Source: a plasmid. Taken from it: a stretch of 64,000 bases of DNA. This document shows positions 12,396 to 39,925 of the stretch, in pieces. The number at the start of each line of letters is the position of its first letter. The first letter of the stretch is position 1. Position numbers and translations under genes: made by a program. The notes beneath the pieces were generated by a model. The model saw only the letters and a list, made by a program, of their open reading frames with translations. It was not told the origin of the DNA and made no database searches. Location of the stretch: sequence record NZ_AP019754.1; one strand, written 5' to 3'.

Positions 12396-13157
12396 TTACT
12401 GTGCTGAGTCGATCGCGACCTGTATTAACCCGATACCTTGCGCCGCGAGTCCGGCCACCACGTCCTGAGAAAGCCCCTTTTCCGTAATGACGTGACCGGG
12501 CTGAAAACCGGAAGACAGGGGATAAGGATGGATCTGCCCGAATTTAGAACTATCGGTCAGAACGTAGCTTTCTGCACCTTTAGCCAGCACGGCATCCACG
12601 ACATCACATCGCAGCATATCCCGCCCGGTGAAGCCGGTTTCCGGGTGCCAGCCATCTGCACCAATAAAGGCCTTATGGAAGTGCATTTGCTGTACGCAAT
12701 ACCGGGTTAAGGGCCCCGTCATTGATTCGCTGCGCTTTTGCAACATGCCGCCCAGAATAATGACTTCACAGGCCGCGTCTTTAAGCAGATGGCCGATATA
12801 ATGGCTTACGGTGATTAACGTCAAATTTTTGCGGCTGGCCAGCATACGTGCCAGCAGGGCGTTGGTGCTGCCGCCTTCGATCAATACAGATTCGCCATCG
12901 TTAATCCGCCCGGCTGCATAACGGGCGAGCGCCAGTTTTATCCCATAGCGGGTATGCATTCGCACGCCAACGTCGTCGCTGTCTAATGCCTGAGCCGCAC
13001 CGTGAACTCGACGTAAAACCCGCTTTTCTTCCAGCAGGTTGAGGTCCTGGCGAATGGTAACCTCCGACACACCGGCCAGCTCAGCCAGTTCGCTGACGGC
13101 GACGTTGCCTCGGGTATTAACCAGTTCAATAATTTTCTGCTGACGCGTATTCATCAT
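12396..13157 (-). CDS. DeoR-family transcriptional regulator
   Basis: 253 aa. [34 protein letters not shown] plus a DeoRC domain. Confidence 0.8.
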
Positions 13158-13190
13158 GGTTCTCTGCTCTGACGTTGAGTCTCACTGGTT

Positions 13191-14450
13191 TCAGGCTAAA
13201 CCCAGTCCACGTTTACCCACCGAATTGAGATCGGCGAGGGTAAACCGGTTCTTCCAGCCGGCCTCGTAATGTTCAGGCGGAAAATCAGCGGGGGAATGAC
13301 CCTGCTCAAGTGCACTCGTCACCTGATGCGCATAAGCGCGGTTTTTATCACACATTGGCGCTGCGGGAATATACATAACGTTTCCCCATCCCTGTTGATT
13401 TTCAACCGATGCGACCGCATGAATCAGGTCACAGTGCCACCATACCGAATCGCCTGCGGTGATCGCCGGTACGGAGCATAATCCTTTTACCAAATGCGGG
13501 TGCCATTTTTCACTAATCGGGAGTACGCGCCCCGGTTTAACACCGCATAATTCATCGTCAGCGACATCCGATAACAATGGGCGCAGCAGCACATATGCAA
13601 TTGCCTCCGGTACGGGAACCACGTGCAGTAAGCCCTGACCCGGCATCATATCGGACAGCGCCGTCCATCCCTGAAACGTCCGGAAAGCCGAGCATTTTGT
13701 GGTATCAGGAACATCAAACTCATCCACTTCGCTGCGATGAGCAGCATGCCACGGGTCGTAATGCTCAAGATTGCCGTCAAAAATCGATCGAAAAACGCGT
13801 TGGTAAGCGGGCAACAGCCAGCGTTCCAGCGCGCCGGAGTCAGTGTGTGCGCCCAACCCTTTCGAGGTTGTTCCTGGCGGTCGCCGACGAATGCGATCCG
13901 GATAGATAAGATTCACGTCCGGATCGAACCATTGCTGGCCCCCGGATTCAAACGTCCACAGGCGATTTAAACATGACTGCACCTGGGCCATTTCAGGACT
14001 CTGGCGCGCCTCCATTTGTGCGTGAGACCAGTAAATGGGATAGATTTCTGGGCGGGATGCTTCCAGGCTGCCGAAGAAATTATCGCCCGGGCCGCGGTAC
14101 TGTGCATCAAACTGATTTTCGTCCAGGTAACACAGCATGGAGGTATCCCATGCCAGCGCCTGTTCCCGAGGGAAATGCTGCTTAACCACCACACAGCCAC
14201 GGCGCTTGATGCTTTCTCGGGTTTCAGGCGTCAGCCCTTGGGTGATCTCCTCGGGTGAAATAACCGGCCAGGCGCTGCCGTTTAGCCGCTCTTCCGCTTT
14301 TGCGTCGCTTATCGCCTGCTCGGTTCTCTGGCAAACCTGCCTGAATAAGCCTTCAACATCGCCAATCTGCTGACGGATCTGCTGTTTAAACTGGCGGATG
14401 GCGGCTGAAATATCCGTGGGTAACGCTGTGTGCTGAAGCTTTACATTCAT
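13191..14450 (-). CDS. DUF1479-family protein (YbiU-like)
   Basis: 419 aa, the same length class as E. coli YbiU (421 aa). The adjacent Cof-type phosphatase recapitulates ybiU-ybiV synteny. Assignment is from memory of the family and is not motif-proven. Confidence 0.55.
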   Translation of the reverse strand: MNVKLQHTALPTDISAAIRQFKQQIRQQIGDVEGLFRQVCQRTEQAISDAKAEERLNGSAWPVISPEEITQGLTPETRESIKRRGCVVVKQHFPREQALAWDTSMLCYLDENQFDAQYRGPGDNFFGSLEASRPEIYPIYWSHAQMEARQSPEMAQVQSCLNRLWTFESGGQQWFDPDVNLIYPDRIRRRPPGTTSKGLGAHTDSGALERWLLPAYQRVFRSIFDGNLEHYDPWHAAHRSEVDEFDVPDTTKCSAFRTFQGWTALSDMMPGQGLLHVVPVPEAIAYVLLRPLLSDVADDELCGVKPGRVLPISEKWHPHLVKGLCSVPAITAGDSVWWHCDLIHAVASVENQQGWGNVMYIPAAPMCDKNRAYAHQVTSALEQGHSPADFPPEHYEAGWKNRFTLADLNSVGKRGLGLA

Positions 14451-14673
14451 GACTGCGCCCTTAACAGTGTTTTCATTTTACATATGAAGGTTTATTTCAT
14501 TTCATTCGAAAGTCAGCACTATGTTTAACAGATTGCTGTTGGTGAAAACCGGAACTGGCGCACAATGTGAGCGAACAGAAGGATTTTTGATGACTGGAAT
14601 TCTCATTATCCCCTTCAACGAGTAAGCTTAAAAATGAGTGAGCCTGTTCAGGCCGGGAAAAAGGGGGATGACA

Positions 14674-15495
14674 ATGGCAGTAAGGATGATTGCAGTGGAT
14701 ATGGATGGGACGTTTCTGGACGAAAACAAGCAGTACAACGTCCAGCGCTTTTCACGCCAGTACGCCCTGCTAAAGCAAAAAGGTATTCACTTTGTTGTCG
14801 CCAGTGGCAATCAATATTATCAGCTACAGCGCTACTTTCCTGACATCAAAAACGACATCGCGTTTGTTGCCGAAAATGGTGCTTGGGTATCAGAAGGCGA
14901 TGATGAAATTTTTTGTGGTGAGCTGGCAAAGGAAAGCGTGCACCGCGTGTTGGATATCCTGGCAAAAGAGCCGGATATCAGCACTGTCGTTTGTGGACGC
15001 AAGGGCGCTTATGTCCATTCTTCAATGCCAGACAGCGTTATTCAGATGCTTAACAATCATTATTACCGACTTGAAAAGCGCGATAATCTTTATGATATCG
15101 ATGACACCATTTTTAAGTTTTCGCTTAACCTGGCCAACGAAGGCATAGACAGCCTGATGGATCGTCTGCATAACCAGCTCGGTGAAATCGATCATATTAT
15201 GCACCCCGTATCGAGCGGCTATGGCTTTATTGACCTGATTATTCCAGGCTGTCACAAGGCACATGGTATTGCTTTGCTGCAACAAAAATGGGGCATTAGC
15301 GATTGTGAGGTGGTGGCCATCGGCGACAGTGCAAACGATATCGAAATGTTGCGCCAGGCCTGTTTCAGTTTTGCAATGGCCAATGCTGTTGAGTCGGTTT
15401 CAGCCGTTGCGCGGTTTAAAACGGAAAGCAATCAGGATGAAGGGGCGCTAAACGTCATTGCCAGAGTGCTGGCGCGCGAATTCCCTTTTGATTAA
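14674..15495 (+). CDS. Cof-type HAD-IIB sugar phosphatase (YbiV/SupH-like)
   Basis: MAVRMIAVDMDGTFL carries the DxDGT HAD motif I. GDSANDIEM is motif IV. SD AAGGGGG lies 6 nt before the ATG at 14674. Confidence 0.75.
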   Translation: MAVRMIAVDMDGTFLDENKQYNVQRFSRQYALLKQKGIHFVVASGNQYYQLQRYFPDIKNDIAFVAENGAWVSEGDDEIFCGELAKESVHRVLDILAKEPDISTVVCGRKGAYVHSSMPDSVIQMLNNHYYRLEKRDNLYDIDDTIFKFSLNLANEGIDSLMDRLHNQLGEIDHIMHPVSSGYGFIDLIIPGCHKAHGIALLQQKWGISDCEVVAIGDSANDIEMLRQACFSFAMANAVESVSAVARFKTESNQDEGALNVIARVLAREFPFD

Positions 15496-15784
15496 CGCCG
15501 CAATGGCGGCTTTTCAATCATGAGCGCGGAAGGGGAGCCTCTTCAAAAACAAACTTAACGTGACGCTGTCACTTATTTTGCCTGCTTCTGATCTTTTCGG
15601 ACTGTATAAGGTGCTGGCAGGGGATGTCAGTACCGCGCAAAGAAACCGCATGCAAAGACAGGTTAATGGTAATAGTTACAACATACTTTAAATGATTTTC
15701 TTAACACCGTTCGGTTAGATCGACGTCGTCTTTGTCTGGGCAAGAAAATCACGAAAAGCCCGGTCCAGGCCGGGCGGGCAGGCA

Positions 15785-16471
15785 TTATTTATCCGCTTTC
15801 TTCTCATCCTCAGCGCCTGACGGCTCCGCTTCAGCAACGGACAGCCAGGGCTTGAGGAGTTGAATATCCAGAATGACGTAAACCATCGTGCTAATAAATA
15901 ACGAAATCACGCTACCGAATACGCCGCTGGTGGTGAAGGTCAGATAGTTATAGATAATCAACCAGGTCAGGCAAATGAACAGGGAAAGGGCAAGCATAAT
16001 CGATGAGAGTGAATAGTTGCTGGTGCCGGCGCCTTGTTGGTGCGTCAGTTTAAACAGGTTCCCGAGGGTGTATTTTTCCAGCATCAAAATCGTTTTTTGC
16101 CAGTTACGGCGTTGGCGTGAACCTGCGCGAACAATAAACAGATACAGTACGGAGATAAAAAAGCCTGAAAAGGCAATCAGTACCGGCACAGCCTCCAGAG
16201 CATACTCAATGCTTTTGTGGCTTGCGCCAGCCGGGCTCAGGTCCAGCGTTAATGAGGCACCCAGTGCGGCATACAGAAAAACGAATAGCGCCAAAAAGGT
16301 TATCGTGCGCTTCCAGTCCGCCTCTGCTTCGCGGTTCTGTTGCTGGAGGGCGACGGTAAAGGCGCGTTCGATATGTTCAGCCTGAGGTGAGTGCATTTCA
16401 ATCGCCTCTACCGTTTCATCCAGCAGGGCAGTGATAAAAGGTTTGTGGTCGTTGTGCAGGGGAATTTTCAT
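15785..16471 (-). CDS. hypothetical inner-membrane protein (about 4 TM segments)
   Basis: 228 aa with a hydrophilic N-terminus, several hydrophobic helices and a C-terminal acidic tail. No recognisable family. Confidence 0.5.
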   Translation of the reverse strand: MKIPLHNDHKPFITALLDETVEAIEMHSPQAEHIERAFTVALQQQNREAEADWKRTITFLALFVFLYAALGASLTLDLSPAGASHKSIEYALEAVPVLIAFSGFFISVLYLFIVRAGSRQRRNWQKTILMLEKYTLGNLFKLTHQQGAGTSNYSLSSIMLALSLFICLTWLIIYNYLTFTTSGVFGSVISLFISTMVYVILDIQLLKPWLSVAEAEPSGAEDEKKADK

Positions 16472-16641
16472 GACGTCGATTCTCGTTGAAATTTCCGCTT
16501 ATTTTAGTCTGCCTGAAGGGAAATGATACCTGCTTAACGTGATTAACCTTGTCAGACTGAGCCACTTAACTCGCAGGTAATGCGCTTTGCGAGCACGGCA
16601 TGATGTACACTGCTTATGAACTCACCACGAGGAAAGCGATT

Positions 16642-16953
16642 ATGAATGACAAGAAAATGATTTCCATCGATCAGTTCAGTGATGAAGAGCGACTCGCCGT
16701 TAATGAAGTTCTTCAAAACCTGATGCAGAAGCACCGTCAACGCACCGGCAAAGAACCTGATGCAAAAAAAGAGAAAGAGTTAAACAGCGAAGCTCGTCAG
16801 CAGGTCATGGCCGATAAACTTCTTAATGAAAAGTTAAAAGCAGAAAAAGAAAGTAAAAAACCGCTCAGGAAAAAGAAACCCTCTTCGCTAACGGCCAGTG
16901 AAGTCGGCGATTTCAACTGGTCCGCCTCAGTGGCTAAAGGCCGCAGAAGATAA
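16642..16953 (+). CDS. hypothetical lysine-rich small protein
   Basis: SD AGGAAA lies 7 nt before the ATG at 16642 (MNDKKMISIDQFSDEE...). Highly charged K/E-rich C-terminus. Confidence 0.4.
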   Translation: MNDKKMISIDQFSDEERLAVNEVLQNLMQKHRQRTGKEPDAKKEKELNSEARQQVMADKLLNEKLKAEKESKKPLRKKKPSSLTASEVGDFNWSASVAKGRRR

Positions 16954-17136
16954 AATAACGCCCAGTCGCGCTAAGGCCTGACGATATAACATGGATCGTT
17001 GGGCCATGTGGACCCGGGCAAGTCATCGGCATGAGTCATCTTAACGGCAATAACAAATAAAGGGTAAAAGTCTTAAAAATTAAAGCGCAGGGCGTTTTTT
17101 GTGGATAAACTGCGCTAAATATATTGTCAATTACGC

Positions 17137-18201
17137 GTGCGAATGACCTATTACTCACCTGATGATCATCATCTTAAAATGCGATCCACGCGATTTGTCC
17201 GTCGCATGTTTGCCATGCGCCAGCTTGGCACGCTTTTATGTTTTTTGCCGATTGCATCCGTTCTCCTGGAACTGGGGAAAGAACCAGCGATATTGGTATT
17301 ACTGATTAGCAACGTTCTTATCTGGCCTTATCTGGCATACCGCCTTGCCGTAAAATCACGGGACTCCACCGCGCGGGAGCGTTCAAATTTAACGCTGGAT
17401 GCCGCATTTGGCGGTATCTGGATTGCGCTGATGGCCGTGAGTCCTATGCCGTCCTTTGTCATCATCGCGGTTTTGATGGCCGACCGTTACGCCGCAGGAG
17501 GCTGGCCTCAGCTGCTCTCTGCAGCGCAGGCATTTCTGTTTGCCTTTATCCTGGTATGGACGATTGAAGGCGCGCCGGTTTTGATGGAGTTTAGTACGCG
17601 CACAGCGTGGCTTACCCTTCCACTGGCCACATTCTATATGTTGGCACTCAGCGTTGTATCACACAATTTGACGTTGAGCCTGCGTCAGAAGAACCGTGAG
17701 CTGGAGAGAATTGCGCTGATGGATCCCGGTCTGGAAATCCCTAATCGTCGTTTGTTCGAACGCCGGCTTGAAAGCGAGCTTTTGCGCACCTTGCGGGGTG
17801 ACACCAGAGCGTATCTGATACTGATAGATGTCGACCATTTTAAAAACGTTAACGATACGTTCGGTCACGAAGCCGGGGATTTTTTGCTGGCTGAAATTTC
17901 CGGCCTGTTACGTGACAGCGTAGGTATGAAAGACATTCCGGCACGGTTTGGCGGAGATGAACTTGGCGTTATCATCCGTGATTCGAATGACGTTGACATC
18001 ATCAGACTGGCCGAATCGCTTCAAAGAAATATTGGGCAATTACGCCTGCCTGCTTCTGTAACGTTCAGGTGTTCCGTCAGTATTGGCATTGCCAGTGCTG
18101 ATAAAGCCGACTCAATACATGAGTGGCTGCGGCGCGCTGATAAAGCGTTATATGAAGTGAAACGATCAGGGCGGAATGGCCTGAAATTATGGCGGGCCTG
18201 A
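17137..18201 (+). CDS. MASE2-GGDEF diguanylate cyclase homolog (AdrA/DgcC-like) with GGDEL motif
   Basis: Colinear with E. coli AdrA as I recall it: membrane MASE2 region, then RRLFERRLE...LILIDVDHFKNVNDTFGHEAGD...ARFGGDELGVII. The canonical GGDEF is GGDEL here. True start may be the downstream Met (MFAMRQ). Confidence 0.8.
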   Translation: MRMTYYSPDDHHLKMRSTRFVRRMFAMRQLGTLLCFLPIASVLLELGKEPAILVLLISNVLIWPYLAYRLAVKSRDSTARERSNLTLDAAFGGIWIALMAVSPMPSFVIIAVLMADRYAAGGWPQLLSAAQAFLFAFILVWTIEGAPVLMEFSTRTAWLTLPLATFYMLALSVVSHNLTLSLRQKNRELERIALMDPGLEIPNRRLFERRLESELLRTLRGDTRAYLILIDVDHFKNVNDTFGHEAGDFLLAEISGLLRDSVGMKDIPARFGGDELGVIIRDSNDVDIIRLAESLQRNIGQLRLPASVTFRCSVSIGIASADKADSIHEWLRRADKALYEVKRSGRNGLKLWRA

Positions 18202-18299
18202 TCCCCAGCGGAACAACGCATCGCGGGGTTTGATAACGTCCATCCGTAGTACATCACCAGACCGTCATCAATGCCGCCTCCTCTGAGGCGGCATAAGTA

Positions 18300-19085
18300 T
18301 CAGATAGCCGGATAGTCGCCAGTGCCTTCAGGCCAGGGCGTGAGCAGGTCAAAGCCCGTCTCGGTGACGGCGACGGTATGCTCCCACTGGGCAGACAGCG
18401 AGCGATCTTTTGTAACCACCGTCCAGCCATCAGAAAGCACACTGGTCCCTGCTTTTCCAGCATTGATCATGGGTTCGATGGTAAAAATCATCCCTGCCTG
18501 TAAAGGCATTCCTTCGCCCGGCGTGCCGTAGTGAAGAATTTGAGGTTCGGTATGATAAATCTCGCCGACGCCATGACCGCAATATTCCCTGACCACGGAA
18601 AAACCCGCGCTCTCAGCAAGGCGCTGAATAGCGGCGCCAATATCGCCCAGTGTCGCGCCCGGGCGAACCGTTTTAATGCCTGCAACCATGGACTGATAGG
18701 TAATATCCACCAGCCGTTTTGCACGCACGGATGGCGTCCCCACAAAATACATTCGGCTGGTATCGCCATACCAGCCATCTTTAATAATGGCGACATCGAT
18801 ATTCACAATATCACCTTCTTTTAATGTTTTGGCCGCCGGGATCCCGTGGCAAACAACATGGTTAACGGAAGTACAGGTGGTACGGGTGTAACCGTGATAA
18901 CCGATATTGGCGGGCGTAACGTTGAGTTCATTGACAATAAAATCATGACAGATATCGTCCAGTTGCTCTGTCGTGATCCCCGGGCGTACATGAGGGGTGA
19001 TCATCGCCAGCACCTGGGCGGCAGCGTGCCCGGCAGCACGGGCTTTTTCAATTTCTTCTGCAGAATGGATCTTAACGTTCCCCAT
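18300..19085 (-). CDS. map: type I methionine aminopeptidase (MetAP paralog)
   Basis: 261 aa with the pita-bread fold and metal ligands in context (DIVNIDV, GHGVG, EPM). Colinear with E. coli Map but diverged. The genomic context is not the canonical rpsB/glnD neighbourhood. Confidence 0.85.
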   Translation of the reverse strand: MGNVKIHSAEEIEKARAAGHAAAQVLAMITPHVRPGITTEQLDDICHDFIVNELNVTPANIGYHGYTRTTCTSVNHVVCHGIPAAKTLKEGDIVNIDVAIIKDGWYGDTSRMYFVGTPSVRAKRLVDITYQSMVAGIKTVRPGATLGDIGAAIQRLAESAGFSVVREYCGHGVGEIYHTEPQILHYGTPGEGMPLQAGMIFTIEPMINAGKAGTSVLSDGWTVVTKDRSLSAQWEHTVAVTETGFDLLTPWPEGTGDYPAI

Positions 19086-19327
19086 TACACTTCTCCTTGT
19101 GGGGTTAAATCGGCATGATGTAGTACCTGGCGAATATCGGCACCGCCGTTCATTTCGATGCGGATTAATGTTTGAGCAAGCTCGTGTTGTGTCAGCTGGG
19201 GATACAGCTCGGCCAGCATGCCCAGTTTTAACCAGTGCTCAGCCTGCGCATTTATTGAGCGGCTCATCGCCTGGCTGGCGATGCGTAAGTTTTCATGCAT
19301 CAGATCGGATATTTTAACAATGCCCAT
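19085..19327 (-). CDS. small hypothetical protein (80 aa), possibly a ribbon-helix-helix/ParD-like DNA-binding protein
   Basis: Its stop codon TAA overlaps the map start (TAATG, 1-nt overlap), indicating translational coupling. The fold assignment is a guess from size and composition. Confidence 0.45.
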   Translation of the reverse strand: MGIVKISDLMHENLRIASQAMSRSINAQAEHWLKLGMLAELYPQLTQHELAQTLIRIEMNGGADIRQVLHHADLTPQGEV

Positions 19328-19963
19328 GCGAAGCCTATATAGAATGTATACGTTTTATATATAGGTTACGCTTTTTGCGGTGACAGTGAAAGCTGAATTA
19401 ACCGGTCAAAAAATGCTTAAAGCGCCATTCTTCCGGTAGCGCGATGAATTTCTAACTTAATGACACAGTCTGAGTGCGTATTTAATCTGTTCTGATCTCG
19501 CGCCTTTTATTGGCGTGCCGGGCAGAGTTAGTCTTTGATGTGACCGATCAGCAAAGTCACACACCATTCTCTGACCGGGTTAAACTTCATAAACCTATGC
19601 GGTATTACCCAGGTTAACTTTTCATGTTACTTCGCAGATCATGAACCATAATCTACTGTTGAAAATCTGCGATATTGACGCATCACGCCTGTTCCGTCCT
19701 GGCCATCGCGCTGAGGTCTGCAATTCATGGGTTGGGTACAATCAGACAGAGATTTGTCTTTGTCCGATTGTTGCCCCTGCTTCAGTTACAGGCCGGTTGC
19801 GGATGTCCGTTGACAAGACGCGGTGTGGATTGCGCAGAGTGGCGGTAATGTGCGGGAGGTTTAACGCAGGCGGTGGTATTTTATCCGGGGCTTTACGCCT
19901 TAAAACGGCATCATAAAAGGATTACGCGTGTTCACGTTGCACTTAACCACCGGGATTAACCTT

Positions 19964-20257
19964 ATGAGAGCACTCTTCGTCACAGGCCTGATCTTTGCGC
20001 TAGCCGCATGCTCCAGCTCAGTGGGTCGCAATGTTGATACAGCAACCGTTCAGAAAATCAGGCCAGGCCTGACAACCCGAGCGGATCTGATCGCGATGTT
20101 TGGCCCGCCTGACACGGAATCCCCGTATCCCAACGGACAACAGTTACTGATGTGGAAATACAGTAAAGCCCGAGCGCTGGCTACCTCGGCAGGTGAAACG
20201 CTTACGGTACAGACAAAAAATGGCAAAGTGTTTAACTACACCTTCAGTAAAAGCTGA
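19964..20257 (+). CDS. small lipoprotein (hypothetical)
   Basis: MRALFVTGLIFALAAC is a signal peptide with lipobox LAAC. 97 aa from this start. Confidence 0.55.
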   Translation: MRALFVTGLIFALAACSSSVGRNVDTATVQKIRPGLTTRADLIAMFGPPDTESPYPNGQQLLMWKYSKARALATSAGETLTVQTKNGKVFNYTFSKS

Positions 20258-20389
20258 CGTTTTATCCCCCATATCTCTGCGCACAATAAAAAACGTGATT
20301 GTATTGCCAGGTTAACACAATTGCGGATCTGTGCAGGGAGTTAACGTATTCCTCTTCGTTCAGGAGGGATGTGATCAATAAGCCCATCG

Positions 20390-20585
20390 TGGCAACCGGC
20401 ACCGGAAAACGTATTCTTAGAATTGTCGGTATCGCCGGTGAGCTGGCCGATGCCATGGATAATATTTCGCTGTCCTTATCAACACAGGCAGGACATTTTT
20501 AAGGTGAGTATTGCCGTTAGCCAGATGGATGCTGCCACGCAAACGCACGCCGCGCTTGTCGAAAAATCCTCTCCAGCCTCGTAAT
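20390..20585 (+). pseudogene. 3' remnant of a methyl-accepting chemotaxis protein gene (frameshifted)
   Basis: Frame 2 reads ...ELADAMDNISLSLSTQAGHF*. After a frame change, frame 3 reads VSIAVSQMDAATQTHAALVEKSS, which matches the extreme C-terminus of the intact MCPs in this window ([23 protein letters not shown]). No upstream MCP body is present. Confidence 0.5.
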
Positions 20586-21029
20586 CTTAATCTGAGCAGA
20601 TGTACGCTATGGTGAAACCCTTCCGCTTAGCGCGCCCGCCCCGTCATTAACGTGTTTCCCGTTGTCTCGTCAGCGATGACGGGGCAACGCCATGTTGCGC
20701 TTGCTGCACAGCGCCGCGTAAAGCCCGCCCACATCCTTCGGCGTGTTAAGTGCCGGGCAATCCAGTGAACATCTTATTCCCCTCTGAAAATCCCGACGGC
20801 AATGCCGATTTGAAGAAAAACGTCTCTCCTGGCGAATGTCACGGGGAAGGGCAGTGTCTCTGCGTAGCGTCGAGGCGTTAACCCAGTCATTGCCGTTTTG
20901 CATCCTTGCCTTGATTCCTTTTCAGAATCAGCGTAGCGACGTCTTTATGACTCCAGACTTAACAGGTCTGGAGTCACAGTCGGCAGAAAGGTAGAATCTG
21001 CAATACGGCTTTATTATCTGGGAAGGGCA

Positions 21030-22130
21030 GTGGCTGAAATCAGCATAAATACAAGGTCGCCGCATGTCGGCCATCACGTCATGGTATGGCTGGAGCAGAT
21101 CAGAAAGGCTTCGCTGTCTGAAGTCGATAATTTTGGTGACGAGGGCACGGTCGAGCAGGTCATTAAGGTCTGGGTAAAGCTGTCATTACTCGTTACGCGT
21201 CGCCGTCCTGAAATCGCGATTTCCTCCCTTCTCCGGCATGTCTTACCGAATATTGGCTCACTCCCGCTGAAGAATCTGACGCGATTACGACTAAACAGAC
21301 TATATAACATACTGATTTCAGAGGGTAAAAAGGAAGAGGCGCGGCGCGTATTCGCGTTGACAAAACAGTTTTTATCCTGGGCAGAAATGCAGGGTTATCT
21401 TGAGCATTCCCCTGTTGCTTCAATGAAAAAACGTGACATTGCAGGCCGTGCGGCCTCACCGCGCAGTCGACAGTTGTCGGATGCTGAGATTTGGGTGTTC
21501 TGGCATGGGCTGGACAACTGGGCACTCTCTGAACAGGCCCGTTGGGCACTGCGGCTTTGCCTGGTGAGCGCGCGACGACCAGACGAGATCGTTCAGGCTC
21601 GTAAAGCAGAATTTAATTTACAGTCAGGGCTGTGGAAACAAGGTACGCGGAACAAATCGCAGCGTGAACATACGTTGCCGGTCTCTTCCCTGATGCGCTT
21701 GTGTATCGAGTCATTGTTAAAGGCCAGCGATCCTGCTTCGCCCTGGCTGGTACCGGCACCGCGCGATGTGATGCAACCGCTGTCAAAAGGTGCGCTTAAT
21801 CAGGCTCTGCGACGCATGTTACGCGCACCGCGCGGCCTGGGACTGGAACATTTTACACCACGAGACCTGCGGCGAACGGCACGCTCAAAGTTATCTGCAC
21901 TGGACACGCCCAACGACGTGGCAAGAAAAATCATGAATCATGCATTAGAAGGGATAGATCGTGTTTACGATACGCACGACTATGTCGTGCAGATGCGCGC
22001 TGCACTGGAAAAGTATTCGGAATCATTACAGGTAATTATCAACAGTGATAGTTACCATTTTCTACATCATCGTTATGAAGGCGAAAGGCTGAAATTAGAC
22101 AGTTCCTCTGTCATGGTCATGAGCCTTTAA
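21030..22130 (+). mobile_element. int: tyrosine recombinase / P4-type integrase, N-terminally truncated (probable pseudogene)
   Basis: 366 aa. C-terminal catalytic domain carries HFTPRDLRRTARS (the R..HxxR..Y context) and ALEGIDRVYDTHDY. The usual N-terminal ~60-100 aa arm-binding (DUF4102-type) domain is absent. First codons lack an SD. Confidence 0.7.
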
Positions 22131-22154
22131 CGGGACAGTCAGGCTGTTTCCAAT

Positions 22155-22187
22155 AAAAAAGCGGTGTCCTCATCAACACCGCTTAAT
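22155..22187. terminator. bidirectional rho-independent terminator between int and hns-like gene
   Basis: AAAAAAGCGGTGT-cctcatca-ACACCGCTTAATT: a 7-8 bp GC-containing stem flanked by an A-run and a T-rich tract. Confidence 0.5.
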
Positions 22188-22191
22188 TATG

Positions 22192-22587
22192 TCAGATCAG
22201 GAAGTCATCGAGAGAACCGCCTGCATCCAGGGCCTTTTTAATAGGCGATGGTGTACGGCCCTGACCTGTCCATGATTTCTTTTCACCGTTTTCGTCGGTA
22301 TATTGATATTTAGCCGGGCGCGGAGCACGTTTAGCTTTTGTTTTAGTTTCTGTAGGTAAATCCATCAGCTCAGAAATATCGATGCCGTCATTCATCAGCA
22401 TTTCTTTATATTTAGCCAGCTTGTCTGCTTTTTCACGCAGCAGGGCTTGCTCAGCTTCTTCTTCTTCACGGCGTTCAGCGACAACGACAGAAAGCTTTTC
22501 GAGCATCTCATTTAACACATCAAGCTCAATTTCCCGGGCTTGTGCACGTAAAATACGAAGGTTATTTAATGCTTTGAGCGCATCCAT
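22192..22587 (-). CDS. H-NS family nucleoid-associated protein (island-encoded H-NS paralog)
   Basis: 131 aa. Colinear with E. coli H-NS: ALKILNN/ALKALNN, RTLRAQARE, LEKLxVVV.ERREEE and C-terminal [21 protein letters not shown]...KKAxDxxGxSLDDFLI. Confidence 0.85.
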
Positions 22588-23617
22588 TGATTAATCCTTA
22601 AATTACAGCGAATATTTTAAACAGAGCCATTCTACGAAAAATATTCCCAGAAGGAAATATCTCTTCAGTCCGAAATGTACAAATTTGTTACTGTAAAGAT
22701 TATTACTGACTTTCAGAACCTGAGAAACGGCATAAAGTTTAGGAATACATTGATGTTTTAAACATATTTAAACCGCCTCATGCCAATGAAAGGCGAGCAG
22801 GTTCTACACAACATGAATTATAGAATCTCTTTTTTAAGTTAAAAAATCAATGAAAATCAAAACCTAATACCTGGCTATCTTGATTTGTCGTCACGTTGTA
22901 AACCTGGAATGATGTGATTTGTCTCGTCAGAGAGAAATGATAACGTATAGTTAATAATAGCCACCCTTAAATAAAAGCTGGTCTGAGCGGACGAAATGCC
23001 TTACTAAAAAAACCGCTATTGAGGATAACGTTTTGTTATATGTAAATCCTGATTTTGATGCCAGACATCCCTCGAACCTTCCATAACCCGACCGTTGCAG
23101 CTGTTGGCTGCTTTGCAAAGATGAGAAACGGCTTTACCCGATCTGAGAAAAATAGCATTCCGGATTCCCAATTACACAAACCCGATAAAGCAACCTGTAA
23201 CCTGTGCCAGGCTTCATGCCAGGCTGAACGTTTTCTCTGTCAACCCAACGGCCATAAGTCTGTATTATCTGAACATAAGCGAAGCGTCAATAAGGGCAAT
23301 AACGTTCACATCACCGTTGTCAATAACAGCCTTTACCCATTTTTTCCATATTGTTTAAACCTGCAGTTCACCTGTCTCAGATAATGACCGCATTATATAT
23401 AAGGAAAAAAGACATAAGCGAGTGTGAGAAATAATTCTGTTCACACAGGGGTAAAACGGATGGCTCAAAAATATCCAGGCCAGCTAATTTCAGCGTTACG
23501 TCACGCGCTCGGGTTCAGAAGTACTGTGCCCGACTTGCGCTAAAACATCTGCATTATCAACAGAATACACACATCGGCTTTTCTGACGCTTTTAAAGATA
23601 AATGTTAACAATAACTT

Positions 23618-23640
23618 GCAATGATAATCTAAATGAGTAT
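23618..23640. promoter_or_regulatory. candidate Fur box upstream of TonB-dependent receptor
   Basis: gcAATGATAATCTAAATGAGTAT versus the Fur consensus GATAATGATAATCATTATC. The ATGATAATC core is exact and the second half is degenerate. It lies 125-145 bp upstream of the receptor start. Confidence 0.3.
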
Positions 23641-23763
23641 ATTTCTCATTTGTTTTTACATGTTGTTGTTTTTGTCCTTATTCCTGATGGCCAGCCCGCA
23701 CGGTAGTTAACTGGGACTGATGCAGGGCAGTGGCAGCTAAAAAAAAGAAAACGAGGCGTTAGA

Positions 23764-25977
23764 ATGTTTCTGAATATCCCCCTCCTGAACAGGGATCGCG
23801 TGAAGCCCACTTTTCCTCTGGTTCCCTCACGCTTATCACTTTTGGCAACCCTTGTGGCAGGCGTATCTTCACATAATGCGTTTGCAGAGACGCCATCGGA
23901 TGTGAATACGAGCAACCCGACGCTTATCGTTACTGCGGCTGAACAGCCGGTTTCCGAAAATACTTCCTCGGACTACAGCGTACCTGTTACCCGCGCGGGC
24001 AATAAGTTACTTTCGACCGTGCGCGATATTCCTCAGTCTGTAAGCATCATCAGCGCGCAGCGCATGAAAGACCAACAGCTACAGTCGTTAAATGATGTTC
24101 TGGACAACACCACGGCTATTCAGACCAGCACAGCGGATATGGATCGTAAGACCTATTATTCTCGCGGGTTTTTAATCGACAATTACCTGATTGACGGTAT
24201 TCCTACTGTATTCGAAGAACGCTGGAATTTGGGTGATGCACAGACGGATAGCGCATTATATGAACGCATTGAAGTGGTCAGGGGTGCAAACGGGTTATTG
24301 ACCGGTGCCGGTAATCCTTCCGCTGCCGTTAATATGGTACGTAAACATGCCGACAGTCATCAGCCAGAAGGCGAGATATCCGCCAGCTATGGCAGCTGGA
24401 ATAAACAGCGTTACGTTATGGATGTGCAGTCCCCGTTGAATGCTGCAGGAAATGTTCGAGGCAGGGTGATTGCGGGTTATCAGGATAATAATAGCTTTAT
24501 TGAGCGTTATGGTGCTGAAAAGAAATTTGTTTATGGGGTGATTGATGCCGATCTCAATGACGCCACCACATTATCTGCAGGCTATGAATTTCAGCAGCTG
24601 AATACTGACAGCCCAATGTGGGGCGGTTTACCGCGTTGGTACACAGACGGTAGTAAAACCCATTTTCGTCGCGGCTTTAATACCGCCCCTGACTGGACTT
24701 ACAACGATAAAGAGAGCAGAAAACTTTTTGCCCGGCTCAAACACACTTTTGCAAGTGGATGGCAATGGACCCTTAACGGCACCCATGATCGGTCAACGCT
24801 TAACAGCAAAATGATGTATATCGCCGGCTATTTTGACAAAAATACGGGTGCAGGCGTTTCTCCCTATGCGGATTATCCTGTCGTTGCGGGCACGGGATAT
24901 AATGCAGCCAAACGTCAAGTCGATGCTGTGGATACTTTTGCCAGTGGCCCTTATCAACTCTTCGGGCGCACCCATGAATTAATGGTCGGTGTTAGCTACA
25001 GCAAACAAAAAAACACTTACTACGGTACTTTTGCGAATATCTCGCCAGAAGAATTGGGGAATTTTAACCTTTTTGACGGCCAGTTCCCGGAAAAGGATTG
25101 GGCGGCGCGCACCCTGTCCCAGCAGGATATTACCCGACAAAGCTCGGGCTACCTTGCCACCCGTATTTCACTGGCGGATCCGTTAAATCTGATACTGGGC
25201 GCACGTTACACCCGTTGGAGCAAAAATACACTGACCAACGATATGGAAAAAAATAACATCACGCCTTATGCGGGTCTGATTTATGACATTGATGAGAACT
25301 GGTCAACGTACGCCAGCTATACTTCCGTGTTTCAACCGCAGTCATATCGTGATCTCTCAGGTGCCTATCTGGCGCCGGTTATTGGTAAGAACTACGAAGC
25401 CGGCGTTAAATCTGACTGGTTCGACAGCCGCTTTACCACGTCAGTCTCGGTCTTTCGGGCTGAGCTGGATAATGTGGCACAGACCACCGGTCGCATTATT
25501 CCGGGTACCACCGAGTCAGCGTATGAAGGCAAAAATGGCACGGTAAGCCGAGGAATTGAATTCGAAATTAACGGCGCAATCACAGATAACTGGCAGATGA
25601 CCCTGGGAGGCACGCGTTATATTGCCGAACAGCGTGATGGCACGGCGGTAAAACCCGACTTACCGCGAACGCAGTTAAACGTCTTTACGCGCTATCGTTT
25701 ACCCATGTTCCCTGATCTTACTGTGGGTGGCGGAGTGAAATGGCAAACGCACGTCTGGAGCGATAATTCGGCACCGGAAGGAAACGGAACGTGGCGTGCT
25801 GAGCAGGGCAGCTATGCGTTAGTCAATTTATTTAGCCGCTACCAGGTGACGAAAAATTTTGCTGTTCAGGGCAATATTAATAATCTCTTTGATAAAACCT
25901 ATGACACGAATGTTGCGGGGGATATCGTTTACGGTGAACCCCGTAACGTCTCTGTGACTGCCAGCTACCGTTTCTGA
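23764..25977 (+). CDS. TonB-dependent ferric-siderophore outer-membrane receptor (FhuE/FoxA/FhuA class)
   Basis: 737 aa. Long signal peptide ending AFAETP, TonB box TLIVTAAE, plug and 22-strand barrel. C-terminal aromatic residue (…TASYRF). Confidence 0.85.
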   Translation: MFLNIPLLNRDRVKPTFPLVPSRLSLLATLVAGVSSHNAFAETPSDVNTSNPTLIVTAAEQPVSENTSSDYSVPVTRAGNKLLSTVRDIPQSVSIISAQRMKDQQLQSLNDVLDNTTAIQTSTADMDRKTYYSRGFLIDNYLIDGIPTVFEERWNLGDAQTDSALYERIEVVRGANGLLTGAGNPSAAVNMVRKHADSHQPEGEISASYGSWNKQRYVMDVQSPLNAAGNVRGRVIAGYQDNNSFIERYGAEKKFVYGVIDADLNDATTLSAGYEFQQLNTDSPMWGGLPRWYTDGSKTHFRRGFNTAPDWTYNDKESRKLFARLKHTFASGWQWTLNGTHDRSTLNSKMMYIAGYFDKNTGAGVSPYADYPVVAGTGYNAAKRQVDAVDTFASGPYQLFGRTHELMVGVSYSKQKNTYYGTFANISPEELGNFNLFDGQFPEKDWAARTLSQQDITRQSSGYLATRISLADPLNLILGARYTRWSKNTLTNDMEKNNITPYAGLIYDIDENWSTYASYTSVFQPQSYRDLSGAYLAPVIGKNYEAGVKSDWFDSRFTTSVSVFRAELDNVAQTTGRIIPGTTESAYEGKNGTVSRGIEFEINGAITDNWQMTLGGTRYIAEQRDGTAVKPDLPRTQLNVFTRYRLPMFPDLTVGGGVKWQTHVWSDNSAPEGNGTWRAEQGSYALVNLFSRYQVTKNFAVQGNINNLFDKTYDTNVAGDIVYGEPRNVSVTASYRF

Positions 25978-26190
25978 AGACGCCGGACTTTCACCAGTGA
26001 GCGCCTCACCCGGGGCGCTTGCTCCCCTGCTTTTTCCCCCTCGACCCGGCGCAAATCGCTGATCCATCACGTTTTGACGTAATTGCCAGGCCAGAAAGTC
26101 GGGGATTTGCGCTACACTGACCAGCGTTAATCCTCCATTCTGCCGCTATGATAGCGCTGTCTGAGGCAAACTAATTCACCTGGAAGAAGT

Positions 26191-26751
26191 ATGAAAATCA
26201 GATTCCTTTCGGCTAATGAGCAAAAACTGGCGGAGGTGCGTGAAATCCTGGAGCCAGTGGGCGTCGAAGTCTTGCCGATCGCTCGTCGTATTGAAGAAAT
26301 TCAAACAGAGAATGAGCTGGATTTGGTGCGGGACAAACTCACAAAAGCCTTCTCAATTATTGGGCGTCCTCTCTTCGTTGAGCATACCGGACTTTATCTC
26401 GATGGGCTGAATGGCCTGCCTGCGGGGCTGACGCGCATATTCTGGAACCGGCTGGATGCCGATCGTTTTGCCTCCCTCGTTAATGGCCTCGATAGCCAGG
26501 GCGTCACGGCCAAAACCGTACTGGGCTATTGTGACGGGCGCAAAATGTATCAGTTTTACGGCGAATTACGTGGCACTATTGCCTCAAAACCGGCGGGCCC
26601 GCGTGGTTTTCAGTGGGACTGCGTGTTTATTCCTGAAGGCTACGATCAAACCTTCGCTGAGATGGGCGACAAGAAAAATGAAATCTCAAACCGTCGCATT
26701 GCACTGGACCGCTTCGCGTCCTTCTTAAAAACAGCACGAGGCGTGGCATGA
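26191..26751 (+). CDS. Ham1/ITPase (non-canonical purine NTP pyrophosphatase) family protein with degenerate catalytic motifs
   Basis: 186 aa. Colinear with RdgB/Ham1: LSANEQKLAEV ~ ATGNxGKxxE, VEHTGLYLDGLNGLPAG ~ DDSGLxVDxLGGAPG, GFQWDCVFIPEG ~ GFGYDPIFxP, and SNRRIAL ~ SHRGxAL. Note three changes: DD to EH, YDP to WDC, and SHR to SNR. Confidence 0.75.
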   Translation: MKIRFLSANEQKLAEVREILEPVGVEVLPIARRIEEIQTENELDLVRDKLTKAFSIIGRPLFVEHTGLYLDGLNGLPAGLTRIFWNRLDADRFASLVNGLDSQGVTAKTVLGYCDGRKMYQFYGELRGTIASKPAGPRGFQWDCVFIPEGYDQTFAEMGDKKNEISNRRIALDRFASFLKTARGVA

Positions 26752-27542
26752 AACCTGAACTCAAGCGGGCTTATGACTCCGGTAAGCTGATACTCTTTGC
26801 CGGTGCAGGCCTGTCCCGCAATCTTGGCCTGCCAGAATGGCATGAGCTCATTGCCCATCTGGCCAACGAGCTGGGGTACGATCCCAAAATTTTTAATACC
26901 TATGGTACGCACCTTTCCCTGGCCGAATACTATAAGCAAAAAAAAGGATCGCTAGGGCCGTTGAGAAGCTGGATGGATCGCGAATGGCATCGGCCGGATA
27001 TTGATGTTCGTAGCTCTGAAATTCACACCATGATCACGCAGGGCAACTTTTCGCGTATCTATACCACCAATTATGACCGCTGGCTGGAAGCGGCACATGA
27101 GGCGCACGGTGTGCCTTACTCAAAAGTCGCGAATGCGGCCGATCTGGTGTCATTAACTGAAGACAAGCGCCACATCATTAAACTGCACGGCGACTTTGAT
27201 GATGATACCTCCATCGTTTTAGATGAAAGCAGTTACTTTGAGCGCCTCTATTTTGATTCGCCGCTGGATATCAAACTGACCCATGATGTCATGGGGAATT
27301 CGGTGTTGTTCGTGGGCTACAGCATCAGTGACTTTAATATTCGTCTGCTGTTTTATCGCCTGACCAAAATGTGGGGGCGCACGGGCCTGGCCACTGCGCG
27401 CCCCAAGTCGTACCTTTTCACTAACCGCAATAACCCGGTGGCAAAAGAAGTGCTGGGTCAGTGGGGCATTGAAATGATCGTCTCTGAAGAAGACGATCCT
27501 CGAAAAGCCCTGGCCGATTTTATGCAAGCGCTTCTGGCGTGA
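26748..27542 (+). CDS. SIR2-like (SIR2_2 / defence-type) NAD+-binding protein, probable NADase effector
   Basis: 264 aa. Start ATG overlaps the upstream stop by 4 nt (ATGA). N-terminal Rossmann motif LILFAGAGLSRNLGLPEW. IYTTNYD (Asn about 108) and IIKLHGDFDDD (His about 147) match the catalytic Asn/His pair of ThsA/DSR-type SIR2 domains. No SLOG, TIR or other fused domain. Confidence 0.7.
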   Translation: MKPELKRAYDSGKLILFAGAGLSRNLGLPEWHELIAHLANELGYDPKIFNTYGTHLSLAEYYKQKKGSLGPLRSWMDREWHRPDIDVRSSEIHTMITQGNFSRIYTTNYDRWLEAAHEAHGVPYSKVANAADLVSLTEDKRHIIKLHGDFDDDTSIVLDESSYFERLYFDSPLDIKLTHDVMGNSVLFVGYSISDFNIRLLFYRLTKMWGRTGLATARPKSYLFTNRNNPVAKEVLGQWGIEMIVSEEDDPRKALADFMQALLA

Positions 27543-27645
27543 TGCGCGGGGCGGGGCTGACCACGTCGTTGTAAAATCTGAACCGCATTTCAGGTTTATC
27601 GGGCGTGGTGATTCTTCTCTGGAAAATGCGGATTACTGTGGTATG

Positions 27646-27661
27646 CTGTATAAATACACAG
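27646..27661. promoter_or_regulatory. LexA box (SOS operator) upstream of yebG
   Basis: CTGTATAAATACACAG is a perfect CTGT-N8-ACAG palindrome with an AT-rich centre. It ends 18 bp before the yebG ATG. Confidence 0.65.
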
Positions 27662-27678
27662 TACCTGAGGGCAAAACT

Positions 27679-28005
27679 ATGGCTGTTGAGACAAAATTTG
27701 TAGTGGTCAGAAAAGGTGAAGAGAAGATGACATTTGCCAACAAAAAAGAGGCTGATGCCTACGACAAAATGCTGGATATGGCGGAAGCGTTCACCGACTG
27801 GTTGCTGACTCATCAGGCGGAGATGGATGAATCTCAGGCTGAAACACTCGGCCTGTTGCTGGCAGAACAAAAAGACGCCGTGCAGCACATTCTTCGCACC
27901 AGTAAACTGCCTCAGTCAACCTCAGGCGGTAGCGCCCCTGAAGCGACGGATGCTGATCATGCGCCGCAAAGTGACAAGAAAGTCCGCGCCGTCAAAGCCG
28001 CCTGA
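27679..28005 (+). CDS. yebG: DNA damage-inducible protein YebG
   Basis: MAVETKFVVVRKGEEKMTFANKKEADAYDKMLDMAE... is colinear with E. coli YebG (MAVEVKYVVIREGEEKMSFTSKKEADAYDKMLD...). SD GAGGG. An upstream in-frame Met at 27643 is less likely. Confidence 0.8.
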   Translation: MAVETKFVVVRKGEEKMTFANKKEADAYDKMLDMAEAFTDWLLTHQAEMDESQAETLGLLLAEQKDAVQHILRTSKLPQSTSGGSAPEATDADHAPQSDKKVRAVKAA

Positions 28006-28007
28006 CC

Positions 28008-28060
28008 GGGTTATGCTGGAAGCCTGCTTCCAGCATAACCACTCTCGTTTCCTGTCTTTT
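28008..28060 (+). terminator. rho-independent terminator of yebG
   Basis: GGTTATGCTGGAAG-cctg-CTTCCAGCATAACC is a 14-bp perfect stem, followed by a T-rich tract (ctctcgtttcctgtctttta). Confidence 0.55.
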
Positions 28061-39217: not shown

Positions 39218-39925
39218 ATGATGATATCGACAGAAATCTTCAAAGCAACGGATCATGCCATTACGATGACAAGCCGTGAAATTGCCCAAATGACCGGCAA
39301 TACGCACGGCGAAGTTAAACGCTTAATTAAAAGTCTTGAAACGGCGCAGCGCCTTTCTCAGCCACTTTCAGTCAATCTCTATGAGCGCGAAGGCCAGACG
39401 CGTGAGGAGTTCTGCCTGAATAAACGCGACTCTCTGCTGGCTGTCGCCCGACTTTCGCCGGGTTTTACGGCCGATGCGCTCGATCGCTGGCAGGCCCTTG
39501 AAGAGCGTGTTCATCTGCCTGATTTTACGAATCCTGCTGAAGCCGCTCGTGCCTGGGCTGAACAGTTTGAACAGCGACGCGCAGCAGAGAAACAACTGGC
39601 CGAATCGGCACCAAAAGCCGCTTTTTTTGACCACTTTGTCAACGTTGAAACGTCTCTGGGTTTCCGCCAGTTGTGCAAAATGCTGAAAGCCAAAGAGCCA
39701 GATTTTCGCCAGTTCCTGCTGGAGCGCAATATTATGTTCCGTGACAAGGGAGCCTTGAGGCCCCAGCATTACCATCTGCAGGCGGGTTACTTTACACTGC
39801 ATTCAGGTACGGCGGACAATCAGCATGCTTTCTCGCAGGCTCGCTTTACCGCCAATGGTGTCAGATGGATTGCCAGCCTGTGGGCCGGACATCTGTCTGC
39901 TCAACTCAAAGGTGCGGCGGCTTAG
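39218..39925 (+). CDS. phage antirepressor-like protein (Rha-type N-terminus + KilAC/Ant C-terminal domain), orphan prophage gene
   Basis: 235 aa. The N-terminus MTSREIAQMTGNTHGEVKRLIKSLE is a Rha-family HTH-like motif. C-terminal KilAC-like region. AT-rich promoter region upstream (39100-39217). Confidence 0.65.
   Translation: MMISTEIFKATDHAITMTSREIAQMTGNTHGEVKRLIKSLETAQRLSQPLSVNLYEREGQTREEFCLNKRDSLLAVARLSPGFTADALDRWQALEERVHLPDFTNPAEAARAWAEQFEQRRAAEKQLAESAPKAAFFDHFVNVETSLGFRQLCKMLKAKEPDFRQFLLERNIMFRDKGALRPQHYHLQAGYFTLHSGTADNQHAFSQARFTANGVRWIASLWAGHLSAQLKGAAA

Follow-up and report, generated by a model that had tools for sequence, protein, structure and literature searches.

A komB-komC gene pair lacking komA on an LPP-1-type plasmid of Pantoea ananatis, conserved across Pantoea and Mixta

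The stretch of plasmid DNA analysed here (64,000 nucleotides, record NZ_AP019754.1; hereafter the window) was identical to plasmid pPANA1 of Pantoea ananatis LMG 2665, a large plasmid of the LPP-1 type. It carries two co-oriented open reading frames, ORF1 and ORF2, which sequence comparison identified as orthologues of komB and komC of the Kongming anti-phage system, the His65 switch, most of the dITP-pocket residues tested, the NADase residues and the adjacency of the two genes being present in them. Kongming has been described as consisting of KomA, an adenosine deaminase (PF00962), KomB, a HAM1 protein with His65 in place of the catalytic Asp, and KomC, a SIR2-type hydrolase of nicotinamide adenine dinucleotide (NAD+; NADase) with His146 as catalytic residue; KomA, together with a phage deoxynucleoside monophosphate kinase and the host nucleoside diphosphate kinase, yields deoxyinosine triphosphate (dITP), which acts through KomB to trigger NAD+ hydrolysis by KomC (bioRxiv 10.1101/2024.12.20.629578). 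In the window, komB and komC overlap by four nucleotides (Table 1), and both coordinates and sequence agreed with a first-pass annotation, made from the sequence alone, in treating them as one translationally coupled unit.

The exact ORF1 protein was found in 655 blocks of the assembly collection. Taking one genome per species, with 8-kb flanks on each side of the pair, we found komBC in 60 species representatives of Pantoea, Mixta and 'Erwinia', with identities to the window proteins of 78-100% (KomB) and 91-100% (KomC). Residues were compared between 56 Erwiniaceae sequences and 20 non-Erwiniaceae (outgroup) sequences, and the neighbourhood was surveyed in 80 loci, in which all ORFs within ~5 kb of the pair were clustered and the recurrent ones annotated. 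komB and komC were adjacent in 78 of these 80 loci, nearly all Erwiniaceae loci shared the offset of the komC start (+557), and the pairwise distances of the two proteins correlated (rho = 0.71).

ORF1 matched the Pfam family Ham1p_like over its full length (3.9e-35), and the solved KomB structure 8zsg over residues 1-179 (E = 1.2e-66), with 55% identity to the E. coli protein by tblastn. It shares with the housekeeping HAM1/RdgB/ITPA enzymes (PH1917, 1v7r; MJ0226, 2mjp; E. coli RdgB) the fold and the S-x-N-x-x-K-x-x-E motif (E = 1e-25 to PH1917), but it has an obligate SIR2 partner gene, and comparison with the solved active enzymes PH1917 and MJ0226 revealed that EDSGL was changed to EHTGL, GFGYDP to GFQWDC and SHR to SNR. 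ORF1 also scored under every NCBIfam ITPase equivalog cutoff (best 136.6 bits vs 203; TIGR00042, 95.1 vs 145.35). A Ham1/RdgB fold with altered catalytic motifs, as proposed in the first-pass annotation, is therefore well founded, and EHTGL together with the sub-cutoff scores argues against a second rdgB with intact catalytic geometry. Its reading of the third motif held for the window protein but not for most of the family: SNR is present in ORF1, but N167 was found in just 5 of the 56 Erwiniaceae sequences, all other KomB proteins examined having S-M-R. His65, the Asp-to-His switch of defensive HAM1 proteins, was present in the window protein, in 56/56 Erwiniaceae and in 20/20 outgroup sequences. 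Residues N9, K12, E15, K49, H65, T66, F140, Q141, W142 and R168 were all present in the window protein and were invariant or nearly so across the 56 Erwiniaceae, save Q141 (52/56). In E. coli KomB, mutation of N9, K12 or E15 (bioRxiv 10.1101/2024.12.20.629578) and of K49, F140, Q141, W142 or T66 (PMC13454610) abolished defence or dITP activation, and Q141 and W142, described as unique to KomB, account for the specificity for the 2'-deoxy and O6 groups (PMC13454610). One further E. coli residue, R8, is replaced by Ala in the window protein; komA-linked relatives mostly have Gly at this position, and Arg is thus not a general feature of KomB. ORF1 had no match in PADLOC (2023 release), because this release has no Kongming model.

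ORF2 matched Pfam SIR2_2 (PF13289; 7.2e-24) and no other SIR2-type family, the sirtuin family PF02146 included, and it matched the solved KomC 8zsf with E = 4.4e-102 (56% identity to the E. coli protein by tblastn). Both Pfam families named in the first-pass annotation were thus recovered, and its description of ORF2 as a defence-type SIR2_2 protein with no fused sensor was borne out; ORF2 has the motifs GAGLS (19-23), TTNYD (N108) and KLHGD (H147). The 264-aa translation contains no cysteine and therefore no sirtuin Cys4 zinc ribbon, the feature that would have pointed to a protein deacylase. N108, H147 (E. coli H146), D149 and D195 (E. coli D194) were invariant in the 56 Erwiniaceae; D194 of E. 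coli KomC is the Asp typical of the NADase clade (PMC13454610).

The roles of the residues forming the KomC filament and the KomB-KomC contacts are known from a cryo-electron microscopy (cryo-EM) study (PMC13454610). The filament residues D77 and R78 and loop1 (D149-D153) are present in the window KomC, as are the KomB contacts D45, E247 and D249, whereas R177T (clade-fixed), E169D, K67S and D46K are changed; on the KomB side, R4, E36, Q38, K118 and R59 are present and S30I and M117R changed. Several of these filament and contact residues were read by eye from the translation and only some were compared across the 56 sequences, among them KomB E36 and Q38, which were invariant.

The likeness to Kongming that the first-pass annotation had proposed was thus confirmed, the window proteins being orthologues of the solved KomB and KomC; its alternative of an undescribed Ham1-SIR2 system does not stand, since the effector module has already been published and solved. 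With the Kongming locus of E. coli NCTC13216 (8zsf-8zsi, 9xvc) the window pair shares overlapping komB and komC genes, His65, 55-56% identity, the dITP pocket (N9, K12, E15, K49, T66, F140, Q141, W142, R168), the NADase residues (Asn, H146, D194) and the filament residues (D76, R77, loop1, in E. coli numbering). It differs in that the E. coli system has komA, in that E. coli KomC R177 and E169 correspond to Thr and Asp and KomB H11 and R8 to Gln (or variable) and Ala, and in that the E. coli locus (L001) stands among lambdoid prophage genes while the window pair lies on a vertically inherited megaplasmid in metabolic surroundings. In PADLOC, ORF2 matched just the SIR2 part of ThsA (best match; profile positions 15-212 of 478), of Dsr and of similar proteins. 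Thoeris and the pair resemble each other in having an NAD+-depleting effector that is gated (in the pair, by prediction) by a nucleotide-derived signal; Thoeris, however, has a SLOG/STALD sensor domain within ThsA and a ThsB/TIR gene, neither of which was found in the window survey, and its signal is a cyclic ADP-ribose isomer, whereas the Kongming-type signal is a base-modified deoxynucleoside triphosphate (dNTP) and the sensor a separate HAM1 protein. A second solved HAM1 and SIR2 complex (PDB 9v0g/9v0y and related entries), deposited as 'Xanthosine/inosine triphosphate pyrophosphatase' and 'NAD-dependent protein deacetylase', is far more distant from the window proteins (E = 9e-24 and 3e-41); in it, E-H-G replaces the catalytic motif.

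The third Kongming gene was missing. No komA was found in the window by tblastn, and a profile hidden Markov model (HMM) of KomA, trained on 61 sequences and applied to the six-frame translations, gave no match at E <= 10 in the window or in 68 Erwiniaceae loci, while the positive controls were recovered at E 1e-135 to 1e-195. A Pfam survey of the window (~50 ORFs) likewise revealed no deaminase, nucleotide kinase, TIR, SLOG or other defence gene, the remaining ORFs encoding metabolic, transport and signalling functions. These results support the earlier statement that the window holds no deaminase and extend it, since komA was also absent within 8 kb of the pair in the 60 Pantoea, Mixta and Erwinia species representatives. 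Relaxed searches for a komA remnant in the 600 nt 5' of komB gave only noise in 60 Erwiniaceae loci (E > 4). Among the best 120 homologues of either of two KomA clades, about one quarter of the proteins being named, there was no Pantoea, Mixta or Erwinia entry, and a search confined to plasmids gave no Pantoea plasmid with a KomA-like gene among the matches listed. A complete three-gene Kongming system (KomABC) is thus absent from the window and the 8-kb flanks.

On a neighbour-joining tree of concatenated KomB and KomC, built without support values, the Erwiniaceae proteins were monophyletic and nested within komA-linked lineages (E. coli; a Pseudomonas/Pseudoalteromonas group; a beta/gamma-proteobacterial group), with a komA-less locus of Pseudomonas laurylsulfativorans as their sister. 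Moreover, C-terminal komA remnants adjoin komB in three outgroup loci in which komA is absent or truncated (L088, L072 and L070; Table 1), so that komA losses recur. The nesting of the clade within komABC lineages and the outgroup remnants indicate that komA was lost secondarily, in an ancestor of Pantoea and Mixta. In another locus (L090), a PD-(D/E)XK gene (PDDEXK_7/DUF2357) ends 8 nt before komB and may mark a further KomBC variant.

The beta/gamma-proteobacterial group is the komA-linked lineage closest to the window pair. The komABC loci of Burkholderiales, Stenotrophomonas, Pseudomonas and others (L073-L085, L087 and L089) encode KomB and KomC proteins 58-69% and 55-69% identical to those of the window and resemble the window pair in gene order, coupling and functional residues; in them, unlike in the window, a PF00962 deaminase gene ends at or overlaps the komB start. 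KomB diverged 2.84 times as fast as KomC in Erwiniaceae, compared with 1.07 times in these komA-linked relatives.

The komA-less pair is nevertheless under strong purifying selection in Erwiniaceae, with stable synteny and no sign of decay. komB was intact in 59 and komC in 57 of the 60 species representatives, and both were intact in 57. The median ratio of non-synonymous to synonymous substitution rates (dN/dS; Nei-Gojobori) was 0.056 for komB and 0.024 for komC, compared with 0.11 for the adjacent gene yebG; as dS was saturated (~1.3), these ratios are approximate. KomC was 95-97% identical where the glutamate dehydrogenase of the same loci was 86-91% identical. Distances of KomB and KomC followed those of YebG (rho = 0.60 and 0.66), which, with the fixed synteny, fits vertical co-inheritance. 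Three species had damaged copies, which may reflect either true loss or faulty assembly: Pantoea wallisii (L058) has a frameshift in komC, 'Candidatus Pantoea haifensis' (L066) has one in komB, and in Mixta mediterraneensis (L029) komC is deleted, other sequence taking its place beyond codon 13.

The only conserved neighbour of the pair was yebG, which stood downstream of komC in 53 of the 80 loci, exclusively in Erwiniaceae. It probably forms a separate unit, preceded by a LexA-type SOS box (TGCTGTATAAATACACAGTA) and followed by a strong terminator (Table 1); the start in the ORF list (27643) is probably too far upstream, the likely true start being 27679. CTG-N10-CAG sequences, nearly all of the form CTGT-N8-ACAG, were found 3' of komC in 50 of 56 loci and 5' of komB in just 7 of 56. 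We also considered yebG as a third component of the system. This is not the reading we favour, because a LexA box is conserved ahead of yebG (50/56) but missing from komBC, and because Mixta has no yebG at this locus. The spacer between the TonB-receptor stop codon and komB must hold the komBC promoter and ribosome-binding site; a putative site, GGAAGAAG, stands 5 nt 5' of the komB ATG, and a weak terminator-like hairpin occupies positions 26012-26025. A promoter scan of this spacer gave no convincing sigma-70 consensus and there was no LexA box 5' of komB, the upstream sequence being poorly conserved between species. Rfam had no match over 25.7-28.3 kb, and comparison with PHROGs was uninformative.

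Further upstream lies a block (~20900-26000) of integrase, H-NS paralogue and TonB-dependent receptor genes. The first-pass annotation had placed the pair inside this block as part of a horizontally acquired region and had taken the integrase for a remnant; the integrase proved to be a full-length ORF of 366 aa with a complete Phage_integrase domain, and the block proved to be separate from the pair. Homology to other Pantoea species starts at ~26080-26190 and continues through yebG, Mixta homology to the window is confined to 26177-27542, and the block stands 5' of komB in just P. ananatis, P. allii and four further loci (L029, L049, L060 and L066). The G+C (GC) content of komBC is host-like (51-54%), in contrast to the AT-rich gap within the block (Table 1). 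This synteny boundary and GC contrast show that komBC was not carried in by the block, which is a later, lineage-specific insertion beside an older komBC-yebG arrangement; they also rule out the pair as cargo of an integrase/H-NS/TonB island, and no tRNA integration site was found near the block. Other lineages have a solute-binding protein/ABC cluster, an opposite-strand EAL protein or, in Mixta, a 1267-aa glycosyltransferase/oxidase gene upstream of komB, and none of the recurrent upstream neighbours is a nucleotide-modifying enzyme.

Table 1. Positions of the komBC genes, of features around them and of komA remnants in outgroup loci
Feature	Sequence	Position	Strand	Remarks
komB orthologue; predicted dITP-binding sensor, catalytically inactive HAM1/ITPase fold	window	26191-26751	+	186 aa
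komC orthologue; predicted NAD+ hydrolase effector, stand-alone SIR2_2	window	26748-27542	+	264 aa
ATGA overlap, komC start on komB stop (TGA); translational coupling	window	26748-26751	+	read from sequence
Spacer, TonB-receptor stop to komB	window	25978-26190	+	213 nt; must hold komBC promoter and ribosome-binding site
LexA-type SOS box	window	27644-27663		16 nt before likely yebG start; one mismatch to consensus
yebG; conserved downstream neighbour, probably separate unit	window	27679-28005	+	108 aa; Pfam YebG 1.3e-32
Strong terminator after yebG	window	28009-28040
Tyrosine integrase	window	21030-22130		full-length, 366 aa; complete Phage_integrase domain
H-NS paralogue	window	22192-22587	-
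AT-rich gap	window	22.4-23.8 kb		37-42% GC
TonB-dependent (siderophore) receptor	window	23764-25977
komA remnant	L088	7720-8001		E = 5.5e-16; UvrD-like helicase gene before it
komA remnant	L072	7660-8001		split across two frames
komA remnant	L070	7502-7933		weak, E = 3.6e-4

From these data we consider it reasonably probable that the pair encodes a working KomBC complex in which dITP, or a near-identical deaminated purine dNTP, would set off NAD+ hydrolysis and growth arrest, the signal being made in trans. Complex formation, the dITP ligand, NAD+ depletion, the anti-phage role and the trans source of the signal are features that we infer from the conserved residues and the likeness to E. coli Kongming, the one system for which NAD+ depletion upon dITP activation and protection from phage have been demonstrated. 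KomB, with His65 and without the catalytic Asp, would bind dITP or a purine dNTP closely similar to it and likewise deaminated, and KomC, a SIR2 NADase, would be kept inactive within a filament of KomB and KomC; once KomB had bound its ligand, KomC would hydrolyse NAD+, and the resulting growth stop or death would abort infection at the population level. As the pair lost its own signal maker, KomA, in a Pantoea/Mixta ancestor, with nothing replacing it beside the pair, the signal would have to arise in trans. Its source might be a host deaminase encoded at a distance from the pair, the action of phage nucleotide metabolism on the deoxyinosine or deoxyadenosine monophosphate (dIMP/dAMP) pools of the host, or another system.

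Several observations weigh against this proposal. In E. coli, a catalytic mutant of KomA lost all protection against phage Rao1 with the housekeeping enzymes present (bioRxiv 10.1101/2024.12.20.629578), and KomBC alone was therefore insufficient in that setting. No conserved upstream partner gene emerged from the ORF clusters of the 80 loci, and no defence island or nucleotide enzyme was found in the window. Defence genes are not typically inherited vertically throughout a genus at so low a dN/dS, and Kongming itself has been described as horizontally spreading (bioRxiv 10.1101/2024.12.20.629578). At the residue level, KomC T178 (27279-27281) replaces E. coli R177, the position being Thr in 56/56 Erwiniaceae and Arg in 20/20 other sequences, and D170, the counterpart of E. 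coli E169, is Asp in 55/56 Erwiniaceae; the E. coli R177-E169 salt bridge is specific to the active state, and defence was 'significantly impaired' by the R177A mutation (PMC13454610). Likewise, KomB position 11 (26221-26223), which is His in 13 of 16 komA-linked sequences and in E. coli contacts the hypoxanthine O6 in a cryo-EM intermediate state (PMC13454610), is Gln in the window protein and unconstrained in Erwiniaceae (Leu 25, Gln 16, His 9, also Pro, Asn, Tyr and Phe; n = 56). The R177T change, the free KomB position 11 and the faster divergence of KomB hint at a retuned activation, but these substitutions do not by themselves show a changed ligand, since the residues reading the deoxyribose and the base are retained.

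Part of this counter-evidence would fit a domesticated complex with a core, non-phage surveillance role, in which endogenous dITP or deoxyxanthosine triphosphate (dXTP), formed by deamination of purine dNTPs under nitrosative or oxidative stress or upon RdgB failure, would be sensed, NAD+ lowered and growth arrested. The pair behaves like core genes, being present and syntenic throughout the 60 Pantoea and Mixta species representatives; its dN/dS (0.02-0.06) is below that of the flanking yebG, KomC is better conserved than the glutamate dehydrogenase of the same loci, and its distances and those of KomB follow YebG (rho 0.60-0.66). It has no defence-island context, it adjoins an SOS-regulated DNA-damage gene, and it lies on LPP-1, a plasmid known in Pantoea to be domesticated and vertically inherited, with a core of only ~46 coding sequences (PMC3505739, PMC12612815). 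Every characterised member of the clade is, however, an anti-phage effector, a suicide-type NADase set off by ordinary stress would be costly, and the association with yebG may be one of position alone, as komBC itself is not preceded by a LexA box; we regard a purely domesticated role as rather unlikely. A change of trigger, in which the Erwiniaceae complex would use a ligand other than dITP or a different mechanism and the lost deaminase would be irrelevant, seems to us improbable. It would account for the clade-fixed R177T at the active-state tetramer interface and the accompanying E169D, for the lost constraint at the O6-contacting position of KomB and for the divergence ratio of 2.8 against 1.07, and the authors of the structural paper have proposed that where KomBC is associated with different partners, it may respond to different nucleotides (PMC13454610). 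On the other side, F140, Q141, W142, R168, K49 and T66, which recognise deoxyribose and hypoxanthine, are retained, KomB is still strongly constrained, and the clade-fixed switches are few (2 KomB positions and 5 KomC positions, R177T among the five).

That the pair is an inert relic of komABC left by deletion of komA would agree with the absence of this gene, with the disrupted copies in 3 of the 60 species and with the requirement for KomA in E. coli, yet it is contradicted by the two genes remaining intact in 57/60 species at dS ~1.3 under the low dN/dS given above, by the invariance or near-invariance of the catalytic and ligand residues examined and by the preserved 4-nt coupling, and we consider it very improbable. 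Ordinary housekeeping functions, with ORF1 as an active RdgB-type pyrophosphatase and ORF2 as a CobB-like deacylase, are extremely improbable: although ORF1 belongs to the HAM1/RdgB superfamily by its Pfam and NCBIfam matches, its best score is well under the equivalog cutoff, His65 occupies the catalytic acidic position, E. coli KomB does not hydrolyse dITP (bioRxiv 10.1101/2024.12.20.629578), and ORF2 is a cysteine-free SIR2_2 protein with the NADase-clade Asp195. More speculatively, an abortive-infection effector may, once its deaminase was lost, have turned into a core gene pair of the genus, fixed on LPP-1, and may now survey deaminated purine dNTPs on its own. Its trigger would be either phage nucleotide metabolism alone, without a signal synthase from the host, or endogenous dITP from a damaged nucleotide pool, with the clade-fixed R177T retuning the threshold; we put this forward as a tentative possibility.

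KomA is known to be the variable part of Kongming. KomB and KomC always occur together, KomA being variable or replaced (bioRxiv 10.1101/2024.12.20.629578; PMC13454610); its association is 'less conserved', and on mobile elements or among defence genes KomBC may be accompanied by different genes of nucleotide metabolism (bioRxiv 10.1101/2024.12.20.629578; repeated in PMC13454610). The KomBC 'candidate types' in fig. S19 of Zeng et al., here compared by their description, resemble the window pair in having no deaminase, but have a linked 5'-nucleotidase, uracil-DNA glycosylase (UDG), NTPase, methyltransferase or RADAR gene in a mobile or defence context, whereas the window pair has no partner and lies on a domesticated plasmid; a partner-less type may be among those in the figure. 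A Pantoea or partner-less form of KomBC was not mentioned in the texts of the Kongming and structural papers or in the searchable text of the supplement, figures excepted, and the papers on LPP-1 plasmids (PMC3505739, PMC12612815) do not mention the komBC pair. A stand-alone, genus-wide, vertically inherited and strongly constrained KomBC thus appears to be undescribed in the literature reached, the effector itself being known.

Published accounts of Kongming describe a relay of three components that depends on the host deaminase to make the alarm nucleotide; in at least 57 species, the sensor and effector are retained under tight constraint without this signal maker beside them. One explanation is that dITP may form during infection without a dedicated deaminase, and both the triggers of this immune pathway and the ways in which phages counter it would then be more varied. 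The other is that a suicide effector may have been recruited for a cellular role tied to nucleotide-pool damage. Either can be put to a direct test, the host being a plant-associated bacterium that is tractable in the laboratory. For annotation, rules that require three genes to call Kongming miss a very common two-gene form.

Other features of the window and of related loci were recorded in passing. A ParD-like antitoxin-family gene stands directly 5' of a co-oriented Peptidase_M24 gene (18300-19330, minus strand), an unusual pairing which was kept in 8 of 8 P. ananatis contigs and might be a toxin-antitoxin-like module. A phage antirepressor-type gene (Rha N-terminal and ANT/KilAC domains; 39218-39925) stands isolated in metabolic surroundings, without further phage genes nearby. 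The window also encodes three EAL-type cyclic di-GMP phosphodiesterases (37-1833, 2523-3716 and 6287-8053), two of them GAF-EAL proteins and one a BLUF-EAL protein with a blue-light sensor, and a MASE2-GGDEF cyclase (17137-18201). In two other P. ananatis strains (L003 and L005, positions 12650-20560), a prophage with integrase, Exc, RecT, exonuclease VIII and KilR genes lies just 3' of a cupin gene, at a site corresponding to ~28800 of the window, where a chemoreceptor gene stands.

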